Positions 13,532-46,811 of a stretch of DNA of 54,751 nt are shown here, in pieces. The DNA is taken from the IMG/VR virus record IMGVR_UViG_2579779067_000001; one strand, given 5' to 3'. A program made the translations under genes and the position numbers. The notes beneath the pieces were generated by a model. That model was not told where the DNA came from, did no database searches, and worked only from the letters and a program-made list of their open reading frames with translations. Every line of letters starts with the position of its first letter. Within the stretch, counting starts at the first letter, position 1. This DNA comes from a virus. Lineage: Duplodnaviria > Heunggongvirae > Uroviricota > Caudoviricetes.

Positions 13532-13550
13532 GACGGCCATATTGGCCGTC
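13532..13550. terminator. bidirectional hairpin between convergent Q and moron genes
   Basis: perfect inverted repeat GACGGCCA-TAT-TGGCCGTC in AT-rich context. Confidence 0.5.
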
Positions 13551-14736
13551 AGCTAAATAAATATGTAATAGCATAAGGCGTAAGTAAAAAGTAGAATCTA
13601 AATGTAAGATATAAGCCACATAAAACTATAATTCCTAATGAGGCAAAAACAACTTTCTGAACAAGCAATCTTGTGGTTAAACTATCAAATGTATCCTTTA
13701 TATCTTCGTAAATAGCCTTGAAGTTATATTCTGCTTGTTGTTTTTTATGATTTAACTCATCATTTATTGCTGTTAAAGTTTGCCATTGATTAAATAGAAC
13801 AAATAGAATCATAATAGTGAAGAACAATGCACCCAACACTACAGCTGTGTTTATTAATGCTTGACTATCCCAACCATTAGCCTGCTTCATTTGAGTCGCA
13901 ACGATAATTGTTGCGACGGGGATACCTAATATCTGATTTTGTATGTCACTGAATACTTTATGTATTTTCCCCATCTCTTCTATTTTGGCTACTCGTAACT
14001 GATCCAGTATTTTCTCGTAAGAAAAACCAGAAACGAATACTTTGTATCCTTTTTGATAACTTTCATAAAGTTGTCCTAAATCCCTTAACATGAAGGAAAA
14101 AGAGGTTTCTTTAGTTTTAGATTCACATGATGATTTTATACTACTTGCTAAAATAGTAAGTTTTTGATCTTTATGCGTATCTTCTGCAAAGTTTGCGATC
14201 AAATTATGAATCAGATCTCCATTAACATTCATAAGATCATCGCTAGAATAATTTACTGGAATTTTTAGTACGTTGGATTCGACGAATACCAATTCAAAAT
14301 TTGTTTCATCTAAATAAGCAGAACAATCTTTGAATAAAGTAATTAAGCTCAAAACATCTCTGTACTTGGATATAATAGCAGGCGACTTTTTATCCCTGTT
14401 GTGATAATTAAGTTCGATTATAAAGAAGTTACTGGCTTCCTTTATCCTATTTTTAGGATTTTTTAAATACTCATTAAAAGAGAAATGTAGCTGCCCCAAT
14501 CGTAATTTGGGGGGGGTTATATGTAAGGTTATAGTTTGGCCTAACTCAATGTTGCCAGATTCAAGGGTGATGCCAAAATCATGGGGATTCTCTGTGATAT
14601 CGTTGATGATGTCACAGAGCTCCTCGTTTGAAAGAATGAGTGATGCTTCAGATAGGGTACCTGCAAATGTAGCGGCCTTGTAAATAGTCACTAAGTCTTT
14701 GAAGGTTCTCTGATTGTTACTGCTCATCCTCTTCAC
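13549..14736 (-). CDS. membrane protein of unknown function (soluble N-terminal domain + 2-3 C-terminal TM helices)
   Basis: 395-aa ORF; AT-rich; hydrophobic segments ALINTAVVLGALFFTIMILFVLF and VVFASLGIIVLCGLYLTFRFYFLL; 20-nt overlap with upstream gene. Confidence 0.7.
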   Translation of the reverse strand: MKRMSSNNQRTFKDLVTIYKAATFAGTLSEASLILSNEELCDIINDITENPHDFGITLESGNIELGQTITLHITPPKLRLGQLHFSFNEYLKNPKNRIKEASNFFIIELNYHNRDKKSPAIISKYRDVLSLITLFKDCSAYLDETNFELVFVESNVLKIPVNYSSDDLMNVNGDLIHNLIANFAEDTHKDQKLTILASSIKSSCESKTKETSFSFMLRDLGQLYESYQKGYKVFVSGFSYEKILDQLRVAKIEEMGKIHKVFSDIQNQILGIPVATIIVATQMKQANGWDSQALINTAVVLGALFFTIMILFVLFNQWQTLTAINDELNHKKQQAEYNFKAIYEDIKDTFDSLTTRLLVQKVVFASLGIIVLCGLYLTFRFYFLLTPYAITYLFS

Positions 14737-15751
14737 CTAATTCTGATAAGATCTCTGATCTTAGCGTATCCGGAATCTCGGTAAGTATCAATTTATCGTT
14801 TTCTGAATCATAAAGAACGCTGCCATCATGCAAGGCCGCACGCTCGAATTTCAGAGACCAATGTTTGGACTTTCCTTTGAAACTAACAAGCCCACGTATA
14901 ACGTTGCCATCAGGCACGAACCCATCAGAGAACTCCAGATCGTCATTGGTTAACTTTTCAACTAACAACTCAGGAGCAGTTGGCCATATCTCGTTTGCAA
15001 AAATTTGAGTGTCGAAAGTTTCACCAGAACGATTTAAATTTTTTAATTTTTCATGAGCCTTATTTAGGAACTCTTCACGTGCCTCTGGTTCAAAACCTCT
15101 TTCAGTAGCAAATTCTAAAAGTGCATTCCGTAATTTTGTTGTTTCTTGTTTGGCAATTAGAATATCGTTGCAACCTAAAAACTTTTTGAAATAACCTGCT
15201 ACTGAATTTTGCCCCTTTAGAAAGCTAATATATCTCTCTTTGCCATTCTGGCGCCCAGTTAAGTCAATTCGTCCCGCTACTCGAAGTTTAGCAATGTCTA
15301 GATATTCACTTTCTTGAATTTCAAAATCGTGGACTGAAGAGCCAACTGCTGATGTTAGGATTGCAACCATCAAATAATGATTTCCATTTACCTCATTATG
15401 GGCAATTATTACATAACCACCAGTAGACATTGATTCATCATCGGCTCTGGCTTTTAAATGATTGATCATTCGGATACTAGTATCATAAAAACTATGTGTT
15501 TTATTTACGAAATAATCATCAACGATATTACCCATAGGGTAACTATCGCGGTCATCTTCAAATTTCCCATATCCTTTACCTGCTCTCCCAGAGTACCTTT
15601 CAGTAAGTGCGTTAGAGAGGTCTTTTGATGCTTGCTGAACAGGTTTTTCTGAAGGACAAGGAATAATGGTGGCTAACCCCTGTTGTTCCTTGTTCATAAT
15701 GTGAACAATAAACTTATGAGTGATATTAGTGGGGGTCGCTGATGCAGTCAT
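14717..15751 (-). CDS. YejK/NdpA-family nucleoid-associated protein homolog
   Basis: 344 aa; by-eye alignment to E. coli YejK (GGYVIIAHNEVNGNHYLMVAILTS vs [30 protein letters not shown]...ERYISFLKG vs RIDLTE...TRYLTFLKG); AGGA SD before ATG. Confidence 0.75.
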   Translation of the reverse strand: MTASATPTNITHKFIVHIMNKEQQGLATIIPCPSEKPVQQASKDLSNALTERYSGRAGKGYGKFEDDRDSYPMGNIVDDYFVNKTHSFYDTSIRMINHLKARADDESMSTGGYVIIAHNEVNGNHYLMVAILTSAVGSSVHDFEIQESEYLDIAKLRVAGRIDLTGRQNGKERYISFLKGQNSVAGYFKKFLGCNDILIAKQETTKLRNALLEFATERGFEPEAREEFLNKAHEKLKNLNRSGETFDTQIFANEIWPTAPELLVEKLTNDDLEFSDGFVPDGNVIRGLVSFKGKSKHWSLKFERAALHDGSVLYDSENDKLILTEIPDTLRSEILSELGEEDEQ

Positions 15752-37124: not shown

Positions 37125-38051
37125 ATGCATCGTATAGACACGAAAACCGCGCAGAAGGATAAGTTCGGCGCGGGTAAGAACGGTTTTACCCGTGGTAACC
37201 CCCAGACCGGCACACCTGCCACCGATCTGGATGATGACTACTTTGACATGTTGCAGGAGGAACTTTGCAGTGTTGTGGAGGCATCCGGTGCCAGTCTGGA
37301 GAAGGGGCGGCACGATCAGTTGCTTACCGCACTTCGCGCGCTGCTGTTAAGCCGCAAGAATCCGTTTGGCGATATCAAATCGGACGGCACGGTGAAAACG
37401 GCTCTCGAAAACCTTGGTTTGGGAGATACAAGCGGATACGTGGGACGCTGGGTGAATACCCGGGTTTTCACGTCATCAGGTACGTACACCCCGACGCCAG
37501 GAACAAAACGGATCAGGGTCACAATAACGGGCGGCGGTGGCGGAGGGGGCGGCTGCAAGGCTATATCCAATAATGAAACGTTTTTCGGTGCTGGCGGCGG
37601 GGCAGGTGGGACAGTAATCACCACGCTGATCCTGACGAAGGATAGTTATCCTGTCACTATCGGCGCAGGTGGGGCCGGCGGCGTTAGTGCGACGAACGGC
37701 CTCAAGGGCGGTGATAGCTCGTTCGGATCGGTAATAGCCCCTGGTGGTGAAGGTGGTGGAAAATCAGGAGTCACAAACACGAACGGTGGTAACGGCGGTG
37801 TGCCAAGTACTGGCGGTATCAACATCATTGGTGGAAATGGAGGCGACGGTCAGTCCGGAAATATCGGCGTCAGCGGTGAAGGCGGAACATCGTACTGGGG
37901 GGGCGGTGGACGCGCAGGCGCTGGCGGTGGTGTTAGTGGTAAGGCATATGGTTCAGGTGGCGGTGGCGCATACGATGCCGGCTATAGCGGAACCAGTATG
38001 ACAGGCGGGAAAGGTGCTGCTGGGATTTGTATTATCGAGGAGTTTGCATAA
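37125..38051 (+). CDS. tail fiber protein (glycine-rich repeats)
   Basis: 308 aa; poly-Gly and GGxGG repeats; followed by tail fiber assembly gene. Confidence 0.7.
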
Positions 38052-38467
38052 TGAATGCGTCATATGCAGTTATTGAAAATGGGATGGTTGTGAATGTCAT
38101 TGTCTGGGATGGCGAGGCTGAATTCACAGTGCCGGATAATCAGCAGCTCATTGATATTTCTGATATCAGTGAGCATCCCGGAATCGGCTGGGGGTATTCA
38201 GACGGGGTATTTACTGCGCCGCTCCCTCCGGAACGTTCTCATGATGAACTGGTAGCTGACGCTGAACAGAAAAAACAGTCGCTGATAGACGCAGCAATGG
38301 CCAATATCAGCGTGATTCAGTTAAAGCTGCAGGCCGGGCGCAAACTGACGCAAGAAGAAACTACCAGACTTAACGTTGTGCTGGATTATATCGAGGCTGT
38401 GACGGCAACAGATACCAGCATTGCACCGGATATTGAGTGGCCGGATGAACCGTGCTTCGCTGAATAA
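38051..38467 (+). CDS. tail fiber assembly protein
   Basis: ATG at 38051 (TAATG overlap); [23 protein letters not shown] typical Tfa N-terminus. Confidence 0.75.
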   Translation: MNASYAVIENGMVVNVIVWDGEAEFTVPDNQQLIDISDISEHPGIGWGYSDGVFTAPLPPERSHDELVADAEQKKQSLIDAAMANISVIQLKLQAGRKLTQEETTRLNVVLDYIEAVTATDTSIAPDIEWPDEPCFAE

Positions 38468-38529
38468 AATCTGTTGAGGAGAAGCGGTTTAATTGTAACT
38501 CAATTCTTTTTGTGTAATAAAAGTAGGAT

Positions 38530-38572
38530 AAAACTGTGACACATAAAGCCTCGCAATGGTTTGCAAGGCTTT
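38530..38572. repeat. left copy of 43-bp imperfect direct repeat flanking cargo block
   Basis: AAAACTGTGACACATAAAGCCTCGCAATGGTTTGCAAGGCTTT; 3 mismatches to copy at 42483-42525. Confidence 0.7.
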
Positions 38573-38727
38573 GAACGCTTCTATATTGAGGATGTGACGC
38601 GGTTTCGTTTATTTCCATTCTATATATTGATGTCGATTTTTATGAATATAGAGCATACGGATAAACTGCAGTGTGATTAGAGTCAAAGTAATAGTTGTTG
38701 ACTCTAATCATTGCAAAGTGACTTTAC

Positions 38728-39795
38728 TTAATGAAATTTATCTCGGATGAATTGTTGCGATGGTTTTTCAATAAATATATATGACATATAGCTAATTGCC
38801 ATTAATGTAAGCATGAATAAAATGAATACCTTGGGGCTGTAAAAAAGATCGCGTCCATAGCCAATCTTGTCAGCTAAATAAACAACAATGATTTGCAAAG
38901 GAAAATGTAAAAGATAAGATGAATAACTGATATCGCCCAACCATTCAATTTTTTTTCCAAAATCGTTTCGTATTGCGCTAATTGATACAAGGAAAAAGAT
39001 TATGGAGGTAAATCCGAATAAGATAATTGAGAATATATCTGCTACTTGCAGGGTAAAGATAACTCCCCATGAGATCAATAGAAAAACACAAGCAAAAATA
39101 AAAAATAACTTTGCGCTAATATTTTTTATGGCCGCAATCGTAATTTTATAAGTCAGACCACCAATAAAGAAAGAGAATGCGCCGATCATTATGGGATTGT
39201 TAATTTTGAAAAAGTAGTACGACAATGCAACTATTAAAATTGATATGAATGTTGTTTTTGATGTGAACTTGCATAATATAAAAAATATCATGTACATAAG
39301 TACTTCAATCGACACGGACCATGTCGGGGCGTTGAAGGACCAACCTCGCTCAAATCCCCATGATTGAATCATCAATAAATTCAGAATGGCATGGTAAATG
39401 TCATTCATAGGATAAACAAAAAAATAATTATGACTTTTAAAGAAAATAATTTGTAATATTGCCACGGCAGCAAATGTAAATATATAAAGTGGATATAATC
39501 TACTGACACGGTTAACTATAAAAGTTTTTGCTGAGGTTTTATTGCTGTGTATATTGTCAGCGTATAGATAAAAAAATATGAATCCAGAAATCATAAAAAA
39601 CAATTCGACAGCATATAAACCGTAATGATAAAAGACGGAAAAAAATTCATAAAAAGGTTGGCGGTTTATGATTATGTCAGATGCAGCATTCTTTTTCATA
39701 AAAAAATGTTGCCAATGCCATAACACAACGGAAAGTGCGGCAAATCCTCTCAGAACATCCAGGGTATATATTCTCTTCCCAAAAACATTCGTCAC
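38728..39795 (-). CDS. acyltransferase family 3 membrane protein (O-antigen/LPS O-acetyltransferase-like)
   Basis: 355 aa; multi-TM; N-terminal LDVLRGFAALSVVLWHWQHFF signature; AT-rich; at prophage right end. Confidence 0.8.
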   Translation of the reverse strand: MTNVFGKRIYTLDVLRGFAALSVVLWHWQHFFMKKNAASDIIINRQPFYEFFSVFYHYGLYAVELFFMISGFIFFYLYADNIHSNKTSAKTFIVNRVSRLYPLYIFTFAAVAILQIIFFKSHNYFFVYPMNDIYHAILNLLMIQSWGFERGWSFNAPTWSVSIEVLMYMIFFILCKFTSKTTFISILIVALSYYFFKINNPIMIGAFSFFIGGLTYKITIAAIKNISAKLFFIFACVFLLISWGVIFTLQVADIFSIILFGFTSIIFFLVSISAIRNDFGKKIEWLGDISYSSYLLHFPLQIIVVYLADKIGYGRDLFYSPKVFILFMLTLMAISYMSYIFIEKPSQQFIRDKFH

Positions 39796-40266
39796 AACGA
39801 ACCTCTTTTAATAAAGTCAAGTGATAATGAAAGATAAATATTGTAAACGAAAAAGCACTGGACTGGAACATATATCTCTGCCTATAATTTAACCAGGATA
39901 ATTTTACTAACGCAGTCATAATTCGTTCATGTATACCAGATGAAAGTACATGTTCTATGAAATAGGGTTTTGCCTGGAGTTTGAAGGTTTTTAACGATTA
40001 TACCTGTTTAATCGACTCCCCATGTTTTTTGACATTATCCACCGCACACGATACTGGATGCCAGGCAAACTGATTTGCTGGCATAAAATCACTGAGAATT
40101 TTTTACCAACAATATCTTGCCACATCTTTTCCCGCACAGTTTCGGCAATAGAATCAGCGGGCAGCGGTCATCAATATTCATCAGACATTGATCTGCCGCA
40201 CTATCTGACCGATGTCCTGCTGAGAATACTAATTTCTTTTTTTGCAAGTGCTGTCCAATCATGATT

Positions 40267-40275
40267 GGGGGGGGG
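40267..40275. repeat. homopolymeric G9 tract
   Basis: nine consecutive G between GIY-YIG-like gene and acyltransferase gene. Confidence 0.8.
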
Positions 40276-40345
40276 CGGCGGAGTTGAAACCGCAGGTACG
40301 TTGTATGCAATAACGTGCTGCGGTTTAATCTTATCAATTGAATAC

Positions 40346-41215
<870 letters not shown>

Positions 41216-41757
41216 CTAACCCTTTGAATTTACATAGCGCAAAAAGATACCTTTCCTCATAATGTGAGCTAATTTTATGTTTCGTTTGATGATCGGATCG
41301 GTCTCGAAACCCGTAGCCACGTCGTATGCAAGAACGTGCTACGACTGGCTGGTGAACTTCCGATAGTGCGAGTATTGAATGATTTCCAACTGTTATCGAT
41401 TTTGCGTATTTTTTGCATGAGAGGATTTTTACCTCCTCCCACCGATCCTCCATGGCTTTACGCCAGTGTCTCTGGTCTGCTATGTGCCAGGAGCGGACGC
41501 TAACCTGATTGACGGGAAATCATATTAAGTCTGCATAAAAAATTAGAATATCTTTAGTTACTATTACTAATGTGTGTATAACTTATGCCTAATTTATCGC
41601 TCCGGCTGAGGGAATCTTGCCTCCGCTGTCACTTTTAGGCATGATAACGACTATTTTTACAGTGGTTCCGAGTTATACTATCTAACAGATTACTTGAACC
41701 GAGTCCGTTTATCAGTATGGCGTTTTATATGCTCAGAGTTCATCCAAGGAGTGACTT

Positions 41758-42234
41758 TTGAAATTTGAACGAATCTATAAAAATATTACTGGCCTTAGCT
41801 GTCCCATATTCGGGATTCAGTGGAACGCGCCAATAATAGAAGCTGACGAAGCAAAGAAGATCGTCATTTTTCTTGAGGACAAGCGCGTTCTTTTCAATCC
41901 TGTCGACATGGAGGGGGCTAGTCATTGCACTTCGAGTGTTATCAACATTAGATCTGAATTGACTAAAGTCCTACAAGGTTTGCCGAGCGATTCACATTTA
42001 GCGAAACAATTAAGGAAAATGAGAAAAGCATGCCAAGAATTCTGTGACAGCGTTGGCTCCCCTAACTTTATCCAACTTGATCATCCTGTTCAAATATCCA
42101 TACTTGAGCGAGCCCTTTTTAAACTGCGACAAAAGTGTGGTAACTCTCTGGCAGAAATAGCGGTTACCTATGGTCTTGATGTTGATGACGGATTAGCCAT
42201 TATTATCCCTTTTAATAATCCCAGTAACATATAG
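41758..42234 (+). CDS. hypothetical protein
   Basis: 158-aa ORF; TTG start preceded by AAGGAG SD; AT-rich cargo block. Confidence 0.45.
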   Translation: MKFERIYKNITGLSCPIFGIQWNAPIIEADEAKKIVIFLEDKRVLFNPVDMEGASHCTSSVINIRSELTKVLQGLPSDSHLAKQLRKMRKACQEFCDSVGSPNFIQLDHPVQISILERALFKLRQKCGNSLAEIAVTYGLDVDDGLAIIIPFNNPSNI

Positions 42235-42482
42235 CAATGACTATGAATTTGCTTGCTTGATTAATTATCATGCAATCGATAGTTTTGGGGCGGAAGCGGT
42301 TAGCAAATTAGTCATTAGTGAGTCGTTATGTCCGTTCATCGCTCATAACAGACATAAACTTCAGTTATGGCATAAAGGTATGCATGCTGGGTGGGGAAAG
42401 TATGAAGGAAAAGAAGACTGCTGCGCCGTTTGTCGTCACGTTTATCTTCATTGGCTATGCAAGTCGTAATACAAGGTGGGAC

Positions 42483-42525
42483 AAAACTGAGACACATAAG
42501 GCCTCGCAATGGCTTGCAAGGCTTT
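42483..42525. repeat. right copy of 43-bp imperfect direct repeat
   Basis: AAAACTGAGACACATAAGGCCTCGCAATGGCTTGCAAGGCTTT. Confidence 0.7.
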
Positions 42526-42601
42526 ACATGTTTTGATGTGGTGGGACGTGTGAGCGCAGTATTGATGGGGTAATGCTTTGAATTAGAAGCGGATTCTTAT
42601 A

Positions 42602-42647
42602 ATTCGTAATGCGAAGGTCGTAGGTTCGACTCCTATTATCGGCACCA
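42602..42647 (+). repeat. attR: 46-bp direct repeat of thrW 3' end
   Basis: identical to 1399-1444. Confidence 0.85.
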
Positions 42648-42811
42648 TCTCCACTTCTTCAAACATCCGTATTAATCCATAATCATACTGTTTTATAAAA
42701 GATTTTTTGTTCTTTTTGTCCATGTTAGTCCATAACCTTCCAGTGGAATCCAGTACTAAATGTGTATAGGATTATGTATATGTTCCTGTTCGATTATGGA
42801 ATTCTATACAC

Positions 42812-43978
42812 ATGCCCCTAAATGATATGCAGATTCGCCGTGCTAAACCTGAAGCTAAAGCCTATACACTTGGGGATGGGCAAGGGTTGTCTTTACTTGT
42901 AGAGCCAAATGGAAGTAAAAGTTGGCGATTTCGTTACCGCTATGCAGGTAAGCCTAAAATGATCTCGCTTGGTGTCTATCCAACGATCACACTTGCTGAA
43001 GCTCGTTCTCGCCGTGATGAGGCACGAAAAATAGTGGCCGAGGGAAAAAATCCTAGTGAGGTTCGAAAAGAACAAAAACTAGCATTAAGAATTCAATCTG
43101 AGAACGCATTCGAAAAGATTGCCAGAGAGTGGCATCAGATGAAATCGGCAAAATGGTCTGCTGGGTATGCCTCAGATATTATTGAAGCGTTCCAGAATGA
43201 TATTTTTCCGTATGTGGGGGCGAGGCCTGTAGGGGAAATTAAACCGCTAGAATTGCTAAATGTACTGCGTAAAATTGAGAAGCGTGGTGCATTGGAGAAA
43301 ATGCGCAAAGTGCGGCAACGTTGCTCAGAGGTTTTTCGATATGCCATTGCTACTGGAAGAGCAGAGTTTAATCCTGCGGCAGATCTGTCCAGTGCCCTTG
43401 AAGTTCATAAATCAAATCATTTTCCTTTCTTAAAATCAGATGAGATACCTGATTTTCTGCGTGCTTTAGATAGTTATACAGGAAGCCGACTTGTTCAGAT
43501 TGCCACAAAATTATTAATGGTTACGGGGGTTAGAACTATCGAGTTACGAGCAGCATTATGGCAAGAGTTTGATCTAGATAACGCTATTTGGGAAATTCCT
43601 GCTGAGAGAATGAAAATGCGTAGGCCGCACCTTGTCCCCTTATCGACGCAGGCGCTAGGCTTTCTTAATGAACTCAAATCTATGACAGGAAATTATCGTT
43701 ATGTTTTTCCTGGACGGAATGATCCAAATAAACCTATGAGTGAGGCAAGTGTTAATCAACTTATCAAACGAATAGGCTATGCTGGAAAACTTACAGGACA
43801 TGGGTTTAGGCATACATTATCAACAATTCTTCATGAAAATGGCTTTAATACCGCTTGGATTGAAATGCAACTTGCTCATGTAGATAAAAACTCTATAAGA
43901 GGAACATATAATCACGCCCAATATTTTGAAAAGCGAAAGGTGATGATGCAATGGTATTCAGATAATATTTTTAGTTAA
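42812..43978 (+). CDS. int: P4-type tyrosine integrase
   Basis: 388 aa; N-terminal GLSLLVEPNGSKSWRFRYRYAGK arm-binding pattern; C-terminal HGFRHT catalytic region. Confidence 0.9.
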   Translation: MPLNDMQIRRAKPEAKAYTLGDGQGLSLLVEPNGSKSWRFRYRYAGKPKMISLGVYPTITLAEARSRRDEARKIVAEGKNPSEVRKEQKLALRIQSENAFEKIAREWHQMKSAKWSAGYASDIIEAFQNDIFPYVGARPVGEIKPLELLNVLRKIEKRGALEKMRKVRQRCSEVFRYAIATGRAEFNPAADLSSALEVHKSNHFPFLKSDEIPDFLRALDSYTGSRLVQIATKLLMVTGVRTIELRAALWQEFDLDNAIWEIPAERMKMRRPHLVPLSTQALGFLNELKSMTGNYRYVFPGRNDPNKPMSEASVNQLIKRIGYAGKLTGHGFRHTLSTILHENGFNTAWIEMQLAHVDKNSIRGTYNHAQYFEKRKVMMQWYSDNIFS

Positions 43979-44049: not shown

Positions 44050-45645
44050 CTAATTATTGTCATCGTGAAATAAGTTTATGAAGACAATGTCATCCCTTTT
44101 CATATATTTATCTGCTATTGATTTTGTTTTTGTTATTAATTTTTTTGTGATATCTTCATTGTGATAACAATACATTATGTCTTCTAATTTTATACTGGGG
44201 TTAGACAGGTGATATTCATTTTTAGAGTAAACTCCTTTTCCGTTAATGGTGATTATAACAAGCACTATAAAATCACCTAGTTTAGTGGCGATAACTGCTA
44301 AACAACATGCATTTATTTCACTTGGAGGTGATTTTATTTTATTCTTAGATGTCAGTTTCATTGCTGGGGAATAATTTGGGTTACTTAGTAATTGCCCAAT
44401 TATGTTAGTATTATCACTATGTATACCCAATTTTGTAATAGTTGTCTTAACTTGCCCCTGAATACTTAATCGGTCAGATATAATAATAGCATTCTCTGTT
44501 GTATTTAATGCCTGAATACAGCTTTCAATTAATGAGGTGTCTTGTATTAGTTCTTTATTGGCATTTGTTATTAAAGTCATTGGGTTATGACTGTTAGAAA
44601 TATTTATTTCAAATTCCAGCATGTCCTTCTGTTCATAAATCCATCGCATGATGGTTAAATTATCTTTGATCTCAAATAGATTCAATATGTTGTCATATGA
44701 ATCAAATCGATATGTAAGGAGTCCTGTTTTAAGATAAATTAAAATGTCGAAATAAGAGGATTTTAATCTTGCTTTGATATGCTTATCTGGAGCATTGATG
44801 GATAGTGGACTAACATATAATTTACATTCGAGGCGAATGGTTTTTTTTGATGTCATGTTTGTTATTTTCAATATGGCATCTGTTTCAAAATTTTCAACCC
44901 CAAACGATAAATCGGCTTCAGAAAAACTCTTGTTCTCAAGAGGCATAGAGATATTAAATCGTTCGTCAAAGCACTTTATATTTCTAACTTTCGCTTTATT
45001 AACCCATCCAAGAGACGCATTGATCAGATTATCGTATTCAACTTCCGCTTTTGTCTGAAAAGTTAATTTATATCCTCCATTTTCATAACCTAAATTTTTT
45101 AAGTGATTTATTTTCTTTTCAGTATAAACTTCCATACCTTCATTTACGTATGATTCAATTGTAGACTTTAAATGTTCACCTGTTATTGCGTCTAATTTAT
45201 GGGTGCTGTCAAATGATACTGTAATGTTAATTTTGTTCAGTTTTTTGGGTTCTTTTAAAATAGAGTTTTCTCTGGCTCTTTGTAATGTTTTAAACATTAG
45301 ATTTTTATCAAAGTGTCTAACATAAACTGCTTGTGGAGTATTGCTTTTATTATACTCAATGAAAAAAAAGAAAGCGGGGAGCTTACTTCCGCATAAACGC
45401 ATCATATTTGATAAAGTAATTTGTACTTTTTTTGAAGTACCATCAGTTGCTTTGACTTGAATTTTACACTCGATAGGGGATGCACTTTTATCTATCATTG
45501 GGTGAGTTGAAAATTGTGTAGGGAAGTCAACAATGAAATCCCATCCAGCACTGTCTTTTAATGATGGGTTGTATATTAACCCAACAGATGCGCAAAGTTG
45601 CATAAATAATGCTTCGCCCATGCTTCCTAGATCCCGTTCTTGCAC
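44050..45645 (-). CDS. P4-hotspot protein of unknown function (possible N-terminal PD-(D/E)xK-like nuclease motif)
   Basis: 531 aa; very AT-rich; GTG start with AAGGTG SD; N-terminal GEALF...GWDFIVDF...ECKIQVK. Confidence 0.7.
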   Translation of the reverse strand: MQERDLGSMGEALFMQLCASVGLIYNPSLKDSAGWDFIVDFPTQFSTHPMIDKSASPIECKIQVKATDGTSKKVQITLSNMMRLCGSKLPAFFFFIEYNKSNTPQAVYVRHFDKNLMFKTLQRARENSILKEPKKLNKINITVSFDSTHKLDAITGEHLKSTIESYVNEGMEVYTEKKINHLKNLGYENGGYKLTFQTKAEVEYDNLINASLGWVNKAKVRNIKCFDERFNISMPLENKSFSEADLSFGVENFETDAILKITNMTSKKTIRLECKLYVSPLSINAPDKHIKARLKSSYFDILIYLKTGLLTYRFDSYDNILNLFEIKDNLTIMRWIYEQKDMLEFEINISNSHNPMTLITNANKELIQDTSLIESCIQALNTTENAIIISDRLSIQGQVKTTITKLGIHSDNTNIIGQLLSNPNYSPAMKLTSKNKIKSPPSEINACCLAVIATKLGDFIVLVIITINGKGVYSKNEYHLSNPSIKLEDIMYCYHNEDITKKLITKTKSIADKYMKRDDIVFINLFHDDNN

Positions 45646-46238: not shown

Positions 46239-46811
46239 TTACACAGACTGACGTGATGCCAGTTGCGCACTTTTACGCGAAAAAATCATGTTCTGCGCAG
46301 GGGTGAATTTTTCACGGCTGTCATCCACCGAAGCCGCGTCAGGCCTGAATCCGATGGTCGTTAAAATGTCGCTATCCTGTGCGGAATAATTAATTTTTTC
46401 CCCCTTCGCAAGCCAGGACAGAAGGGCTTCACGCAGGGCATCTGTGGCACGCTGTATGGCACAGTTTCGGGCAATGGCCGTCAGCTCACTGTAGCCCATC
46501 AGCTCCGGTGCCAGTGCCGCCGCCAGTGCTGTGCCGTGCTGCTGCATAAAATCATTCAGCCGGTCGCGGATGCTGATGTGCTGAACGGCTTCATGCGAAC
46601 GAATATAACGACCGGCGGCCTGATTCACCTGCCATTTTCTGACTTCGATAATATTGCGTAATTCGTCCAGGCGACTGACGTTTCTGCCTTCCCCGGACAG
46701 AAGCCGCAGATATTCCTGTTCGGCCGCAGCCAGCTCATTTTTGCGTTGCAGCCATGCTGCTTTGTTATTCTGACAGGTGTCAAAGGCCTGCTGTAAGGCT
46801 GTGCTTTCCAT
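46239..46811 (-). CDS. psu: polarity suppression protein Psu
   Basis: 190 aa, the size of P4 Psu; order sid-delta-psu. Confidence 0.8.
   Translation of the reverse strand: MESTALQQAFDTCQNNKAAWLQRKNELAAAEQEYLRLLSGEGRNVSRLDELRNIIEVRKWQVNQAAGRYIRSHEAVQHISIRDRLNDFMQQHGTALAAALAPELMGYSELTAIARNCAIQRATDALREALLSWLAKGEKINYSAQDSDILTTIGFRPDAASVDDSREKFTPAQNMIFSRKSAQLASRQSV

Follow-up and report, generated by a model that had tools for sequence, protein, structure and literature searches.

Acetylation of the O-antigen by phage-borne genes is familiar from Shigella and Salmonella, and the reaction of the Sf6 enzyme Oac is the 2-O-acetylation of rhamnose. O-acetylation by Sf6 Oac blocks superinfection, and phage SfII carries oacD, whose product is responsible for 6-O-acetylation of GlcNAc (PMC9558356). 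Here we describe a gene of the acyltransferase-3 (AT3) family at positions 38728 to 39795 (minus strand) of the viral record IMGVR_UViG_2579779067_000001 (Caudoviricetes), a stretch of 54,751 nt that is referred to as a whole as the window and that holds a prophage of the SfII and SfV type. The gene probably encodes a lysogenic-conversion O-acyltransferase that modifies the O-polysaccharide of the host, most likely the O8 and O9 polymannans, and that travels with the receptor-binding tip of the tail fibre.

Comparison with described conversion systems

The prophage is approximately 97% identical to SfII, SfI, SfV and SfIV over most of its length. It lies at thrW, a tRNA-Thr(CGT) gene found with ARAGORN at 1369-1444 (plus strand), whose 3' part at 1399-1445 is the attL copy of a 47-nt core. 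Direct sequence comparison placed the attR repeat of the thrW 3' end, and with it the right prophage boundary, at 42602-42648 (plus strand); the two copies bound a prophage of about 41 kb. Its integrase (1459-2622, minus strand; PHROG integrase, 8e-120) is of the SfV/SfII type and aligns to the int region of both phages. Homology to SfII and SfV ends at 37426, within the tail-fibre gene, and returns at 42477 with a terminator element and the att core.

Between these two points each phage has its own slot content. In SfV the slot holds a fibre tip, tfa and gtrV-gtrB-gtrA, and in SfII it holds a fibre tip, tfa, an AT3 ORF (open reading frame; SfII_25), an insertion sequence (IS) and gtrII-gtrB-gtrA. 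In the window it holds a glycine-rich fibre tip, tfa, the AT3 gene in convergent orientation, a GIY-YIG gene, a small ORF and a DUF6650 gene. Positions 37427-42476 showed no homology to the gtr region of SfV or SfII, and the slot thus contains no gtr cassette. The tail-fibre gene (37125-38051, plus strand), identified from Pfam, the PHROG tail-fibre families and the homology breakpoint, shares its N-terminal ~100 amino acids with SfV and SfII, and its glycine-rich tip (PF21722) begins at 37427. It is followed by the gene for the tail fibre assembly protein, tfa (38027-38467, plus strand; Caudo_TAP, Pfam PF02413, 9.5e-21), which RefSeq also calls in relatives. The AT3 gene lies just after tfa, 2.8 kb inside attR; it therefore sits between the tail-fibre genes and attR, in the gtr/oacD segment of SfV and SfII, with a conserved leader of its own, which is the position of a conversion module.

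Pairwise BLASTP was used to compare the protein with characterised or annotated AT3 proteins. By position, SfII_25 is in the same place: the phage backbone and the thrW-type int/att region are shared, both genes are convergent and directly follow the tail-fibre assembly gene, and both products are AT3-only proteins of similar size (349 amino acids for SfII_25 and 355 here). However, pairwise similarity between them is undetectable (E=0.56 over 11 amino acids), SfII retains gtrA, gtrB and gtrII alongside its AT3 ORF, and its host is S. flexneri, in contrast to the E. coli O8/O9 hosts found here. Sf6 Oac, which we propose as the functional model, is likewise AT3-only, with about ten transmembrane helices (TMHs) and the FFXISG and RXXR motifs. 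In Sf6, oac lies on the opposite strand after the tailspike gene and is followed by int, and the AT3 gene here also lies between a receptor-binding gene and the int/att end; Sf6, however, is a podovirus with an endorhamnosidase tailspike rather than a myovirus with a fibre, and similarity to Oac is barely detectable (E=0.07, C-terminal 86 amino acids). Oac and OacD themselves compare with E=2.6. Because proven O-antigen acetylases are thus undetectable to each other, the sequence distance to Oac or OacD neither supports nor excludes an O-antigen role, and it is the context that must point to the substrate. OafA and OafB of Salmonella (GtrC family II) are O-antigen acetylation enzymes, some of them prophage-borne, and share the AT3 domain with R/K-X10-H, FFXISG and RXXR, but they are AT3-SGNH fusions of about 600 or more amino acids with an 11th helix. 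An OafA-type fusion was rejected for the protein described here, whose only Pfam domain stops at residue 334 and which has no C-terminal SGNH domain.

The sequence-only reading of this stretch had placed an AT-rich, multi-spanning AT3 gene in the right-end cargo block of an SfV-like prophage at thrW, in the place of a gtr cassette. All of this agrees with our analysis, in which 37427-42476 replaces gtrA-gtrB-gtrV of SfV and oacD, the IS and gtrA-gtrB-gtrII of SfII. Its description of the gene as being of the Oac/OafA type was too loose: the AT3-only organisation resembles Oac, whereas the OafA part does not apply and there is no specific sequence relationship to Oac or OacD.

The ORF begins with a GTG start codon, which is preceded at a distance of 6 nt by AAGAGG, and the same 1068-nt coding sequence is called by RefSeq in related genomes with near-identical loci. 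Pfam PF01757 (Acyl_transf_3) matched residues 10-334 of the protein with 86.6 bits (E=2.2e-24; gathering cut-off, 31 bits), covering profile positions 2-320 of 326 and thus the whole domain. PHROG 3333 'O-acetyltransferase' matched as well (2e-40), and no model of NCBIfam or PADLOC did. All three AT3 signatures are present, as R16-X10-H27, FFMISG at residues 66-71 and RVSR at residues 96-99; the family motifs are R/K-X10-H in TMH1, FFXISG in TMH2 and RXXR in the TMH2-3 loop or TMH3 (PMC7448272), and they have been proven essential in Oac and OafA (PMC7448272, PMC9558356). In an alignment of 36 relatives (39-86% identity), R16 and H27, F66, F67, S70 and G71, and R96 and R99 were invariant, as were W159, S160, S162 and E164, and S290, Y291, Y294 and H297.

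The AlphaFold2 (AF2) model was confident (predicted local distance difference test score, pLDDT, 89.2; predicted template modelling score, pTM, 0.88) and all-helical, with 10-11 long helices, and the protein is predicted to be multi-spanning, in the AT3/TmAT fold class of about ten TMHs. The top PDB folds for the model were HGSNAT (prob 0.99, TMq 0.42) and GWT1, both transmembrane acyltransferases; a PDB sequence search returned nothing at E<=1 and so yielded no bacterial AT3 structure. The ratio of nonsynonymous to synonymous substitution rates (dN/dS) was 0.17 both against the IAI1 allele (97% identical) and against the Citrobacter allele (86% protein identity), with dS up to 0.41 in these comparisons. 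The gene is under purifying selection. Its GC content is 31.9%, compared to 55% for the late genes. Because of the family match, the motifs, the confident model and the dN/dS of 0.17, positions 38728-39795 hold a functional protein-coding gene and not a chance ORF.

An upstream leader or promoter region of about 500 nt (39796-40295, minus strand) was conserved in an alignment of four strains and co-travels with the gene, being kept even in IAI1, whose upstream gene differs. It contains a perfect TATAAT at 40002-39997 as a candidate -10 element. A poly-A tract at 40237-40243 (7-9 nt) and a poly-C tract at 40267-40275 (6-9 nt), some 440-480 nt upstream of the AT3 start, vary in length among the four strains, which could reflect slipped-strand variation or errors in homopolymer assembly. 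We also weighed a phase-variation switch of the gtr/OxyR-Dam type, which the single GATC upstream does not support. On the other side of the gene, a perfect 12-bp hairpin (GATTAGAGTCAA / TTGACTCTAATC; 38675-38709) lies 18 nt past the AT3 stop codon; no T-run follows it.

Relatives, mobility and hosts

The enterobacterial relatives of the AT3 protein are mostly prophage cargo beside receptor-binding genes. The Citrobacter freundii relative (86%) is the last gene of a prophage with a Mu-like tail, past the fibre gene and tfa, and a metagenomic relative (79%) lies at a prophage end past lambdoid fibre genes. In S. plymuthica (50%) the gene is within a P2-like remnant, in S. marcescens (49%) it is prophage cargo within the tail module, and in K. 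aerogenes (46%) a fibre adaptor and beta-helix tailspikes flank it. Among the named cultured phages listed by tblastn, the best match was the annotated O-acetyltransferase of TL-2011b, whose gene adjoins a large putative tail protein; the relationship is at the superfamily level only (E=3e-14, 26.5% identity, full length), and the TL-2011b protein is itself, as far as we found, annotated and not characterised. TL-2011b and phiV10 are probably both epsilon15-like phages, and the Oac protein of phiV10 acetylates the O157 antigen.

The non-phage relatives that were examined, four in number (P. savastanoi, P. putida, X. albilineans and Massilia), all lie in ABC-transporter O-polysaccharide loci with wzm, wzt encoding a Wzt_C domain, and multi-domain polymerases of glycosyltransferase family 4 (GT4), and three of the four loci have a WbdD-like terminating methyltransferase. 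The O8/O9 pathway of E. coli has the same architecture. These Pseudomonas syringae/putida, Xanthomonas albilineans and Massilia proteins show 40-44% full-length identity (E ~1e-81 to 1e-90) and share the invariant residues. They differ in being encoded by chromosomal biosynthetic-locus genes rather than phage cargo, and their polymers are probably rhamnans or other glycans, not mannans; as far as we found, they are uncharacterised.

Of 5426 complete E. coli genomes, 48-49 have the gene, at 97-99.8% identity; it is intact in 48 and is spread over no fewer than four integration sites and two or more types of prophage. It is at thrW in NCTC11129 and in the window and at dusA in AH02; IAI1 has it at yfhH in another type of prophage, and in RMDEC332 the site is near the O locus. 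A cluster of truncated alleles (P0004, 331 amino acids) and a remnant in Z0117EC0116 (32% of the gene) also exist. The relative of the prophage that integrates at dusA was assembled, besides its chromosomal copy, as a 43.7-kb circular 'plasmid' of its own in both AH02 (NZ_CP081704.1) and CT01 (NZ_CP081794.1), as would fit an active phage that excises spontaneously.

In 47 of the 48 genomes the AT3 gene is preceded by the same glycine-rich fibre tip and tfa. The fibre tip itself occurs in 303 E. coli genomes, 47 of them with the AT3 gene, and the tip together with tfa (37427-38467) is a mobile unit. Some copies of the tip are on plasmids of about 90 kb, P1-like by size alone. A tblastn search of the tip against phage genomes gave no matches, probably due to the low-complexity filter, and linked no characterised phage to the fibre receptor.

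Because IAI1 and 16F5M1D1 are O8, the carriers were O-typed. For the serotypes of carrier strains, the literature yielded just O8:H8 for 16F5M1D1 and the sequence type ST155 for NCTC11129. The O8 cluster of IAI1 occurs in 353 genomes (6.5%), and AT3 carriers numbered 10 among the 60 O8 genomes ranked best and 6 among 60 taken at even spacing, where ~0.5 would be expected. An O9-family cluster occurs in 292 genomes, and 5 of 39 of the PBS4 subtype were carriers. When the his-gnd region was fetched directly, NCTC11129 and 1297KP proved to be O8, and PBS4, a15 and MY732, which form one lineage, O9. In all, the 24 typed carriers comprised 17 O8, 5 O9 and 2 other genomes against an O8+O9 background of 11.9%, in a sample that is biased and confounded with the fibre tip. 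Among typings free of ascertainment bias, O8/O9 was found in 5 of 7 genomes (p about 4e-4) and 3 of 5 lineages (p about 0.014).

Further cargo of the slot and the adjoining satellite

A 72-nt direct repeat with copies that are 79% identical, found by repeat search, brackets the cargo. The left copy (38520-38591) lies between tfa and the AT3 3' end, and its positions 38527-38572 align to the SfII/SfV terminator element; the right copy (42473-42544) is that element by comparison with SfII and SfV. Both correspond to the stem-loop annotated beside attP in SfII as a rho-independent terminator, and the pair may be a recombination scar or a hotspot for cargo exchange.

Beside the AT3 gene is a gene for a GIY-YIG nuclease-domain protein (40346-41170, minus strand; Pfam PF22945), the anti-phage defence gene PD-T4-3, to which the PADLOC model PDLC04031 matched over the full length (2.6e-140); RefSeq places its start at 41119. 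An inverted repeat past its stop codon forms a hairpin at 40282-40331. Because relatives carry type II restriction-modification (R-M), SIR2, HEPN or nuclease+UvrD genes instead in the stretch adjoining PD-T4-3, the slot is a swap-site, or hotspot, for anti-phage cargo. The remaining cargo is a 92-amino-acid ORF at 41175-41453, to which no Pfam or PADLOC model matched, and the DUF6650 gene at 41758-42234 (plus strand; Pfam PF20355, 2.1e-16; PHROG 29952).

Elsewhere in the prophage, an AT-rich insert (36-39% GC) at 13549-15751 (minus strand) contains two genes, one for a 395-amino-acid protein with no Pfam or PADLOC match and the other for a 344-amino-acid NA37/YejK-like nucleoid-associated protein (PF04245, 8e-69). 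Directly past attR, a P4-like satellite stands in tandem at 42812-~53000, with an integrase gene (42812-43978), Psu (46239-46811), a primase-helicase and an Icd-like gene. Between its int and psu lies a 531-amino-acid ORF (44050-45645, minus strand; 30% GC) with no Pfam or PADLOC match, which may be a defence-hotspot gene.

Alternative roles and a proposed mechanism

Modification of the O-antigen is the reading best supported by independent context, because the gene occupies the oacD position, its relatives lie in O-polysaccharide loci and its carriers are enriched in O8/O9 hosts. Acetylation, serotype conversion and exclusion are functions that we infer from this reading.

Several observations weigh against it. 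The carrier typings came via O8 or O9 searches in 17 of 24 cases and are thus ascertainment-biased, and the carriers are not phylogenetically independent; three of the five O9 genomes belong to a single lineage. Two carriers, PC-NDM34 and 22AR0322, were of other types by their his-gnd region, and the O locus of 22AR0322 was degraded. Genomes with the fibre tip only are often O8/O9 as well (E2, D7, MLI107, Ec-U9-2, PK-F-10122, J3 and an O9:H10 strain, as well as HS, which is O9). Because the tip is enriched in O8/O9 hosts without the AT3 gene, the association possibly reflects phage host range and not the substrate of the enzyme. In addition, the Kluyvera relative (59%) is a lone chromosomal gene of uninformative context, the single exception among those examined, and the top BLAST match among characterised E. 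coli AT3 proteins is K-12 WecH, the acetylase of the enterobacterial common antigen (ECA). A promoter and terminator scan found sites no more numerous than in shuffled sequence and no convincing sigma-70 promoter for the gene. Neither acetylated polymannan O-antigens nor conversion of O8/O9 by phages came up in a search of the literature, and a review of the O8/O9 polymannans describes no O-acetylation (PMC7685785). The association with O8/O9 appears real but is limited in three ways: most typings came from O8/O9 searches, kinship was not corrected for and fibre-tip host range is a confounder. The enrichment of the tip alone suggests a receptor-binding protein that binds polymannan.

The alternative that survives best, though we consider it unlikely, is a functional AT3 with another acceptor, such as ECA (WecH-like), osmoregulated periplasmic glucans (OPG; OpgC-like), the lipopolysaccharide (LPS) core, capsule or the product of a second Wzx/Wzy cluster, perhaps with an acyl group other than acetyl, the O8/O9 link then being one of fibre-tip host range. 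The substrates of AT3 enzymes are highly diverse (PMC9558356), O8/O9 strains do have a further polysaccharide cluster, which lies between galF and gnd, and the carriers without O8/O9 clusters and the enrichment seen for the tip alone would both fit such a role. The match to WecH, however, is weak and partial (E=2.6e-6, N-terminal 117 amino acids only), similarity to K-12 OpgC is undetectable (E=0.6 over 83 amino acids), and chromosomal wecH and opgC are already present in E. coli. The four non-phage relatives are in O-polysaccharide loci rather than those for ECA, OPG or capsule, and in SfII, SfV and Sf6 the slot is used for O-antigen modification genes.

A second possibility, which we think improbable, is that the gene is a passenger, intact yet silent or irrelevant in E. 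coli, which is carried along with the mobile fibre-tip/tfa cassette and leaves the lysogen surface unaffected. AT-rich foreign genes are typically silenced by H-NS, and the low GC content (32%), the lack of a good promoter match in the scan, the presence of the gene in only 47 of 303 fibre-tip genomes and the existence of truncated and remnant alleles are all in keeping with this. A passenger would not, however, account well for a dN/dS of 0.17 over dS up to 0.41, invariant catalytic motifs, a good ribosome binding site, a leader that is kept where the upstream gene differs, and intact copies in 48 genomes at several integration sites. Finally, it is very improbable that the protein is an orthologue of S. 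flexneri Oac, OacB, OacC or OacD that adds acetyl groups to rhamnose or GlcNAc in a flexneri-type O-antigen: the backbone, integration site and oacD slot are those of SfII (the first two also of SfV) and the distance argument is weak for the reason given above, but orthology to Oac and OacD was rejected on the non-significant similarity to Sf6 Oac and SfII_25 (OacB and OacC were not compared), no Shigella phage was among the tblastn matches listed, and the identified hosts are E. coli with mannan O-antigens.

In the proposed O-antigen role, the protein would act as an inner-membrane O-acyltransferase that stands alone (AT3-only) and forms part of the lysogenic-conversion cargo. If it works as characterised AT3 enzymes do, acetyl-CoA would enter the pore formed by the roughly ten helices from the cytoplasmic side and be held by the arginines of R-X10-H and RXXR. 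The acyl group would then be transferred to a sugar hydroxyl of the O-polysaccharide at the periplasmic face, ahead of its ligation to lipid A-core or afterwards. The most probable acceptor is the O-antigen of the host, which in E. coli would be O8 and O9, the polymannans made by the ABC-transporter route. If the gene is expressed in the lysogen, as we infer, the consequence would be an altered O-epitope and less adsorption of phages that use this polysaccharide, including those with the same glycine-rich fibre tip, in parallel to Sf6 Oac. There is precedent at each step of this mechanism, because polymannose O-antigens are an established phage receptor, bound by the L-shaped fibres of T5 (work cited in PMC10743462), and acetylation by Sf6 Oac blocks superinfection.

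These data led us to consider, tentatively and with less confidence than the O-acyltransferase role itself, that the fibre tip, its assembly protein and the AT3 protein could together make up a portable 'recognise-and-mask' cassette that is specific to polymannan O-antigens made by the ABC-transporter route. In that case, about 1 in 10 O8 strains of E. coli, and part of the O9 strains, would show an uncatalogued O-acetylated mannan, and the whole AT3 clade, from the Pseudomonas and Xanthomonas loci to the enterobacterial prophages, would be dedicated to the periplasmic acylation of capped homopolymers exported by Wzm/Wzt. The new element is a testable prediction that an uncharacterised AT3 clade modifies the O8/O9 polymannans, the textbook models of ABC-transporter O-antigens. 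If it is true, there would be hidden antigenic heterogeneity within O8 and O9, which bears on serotyping, vaccines and the host range of phages used in therapy. It would also provide an example of the modification of an ABC-exported O-chain in the periplasm of E. coli, and, in nature, a case in which a tip that binds the receptor and an enzyme that masks it pass jointly between unrelated prophages.

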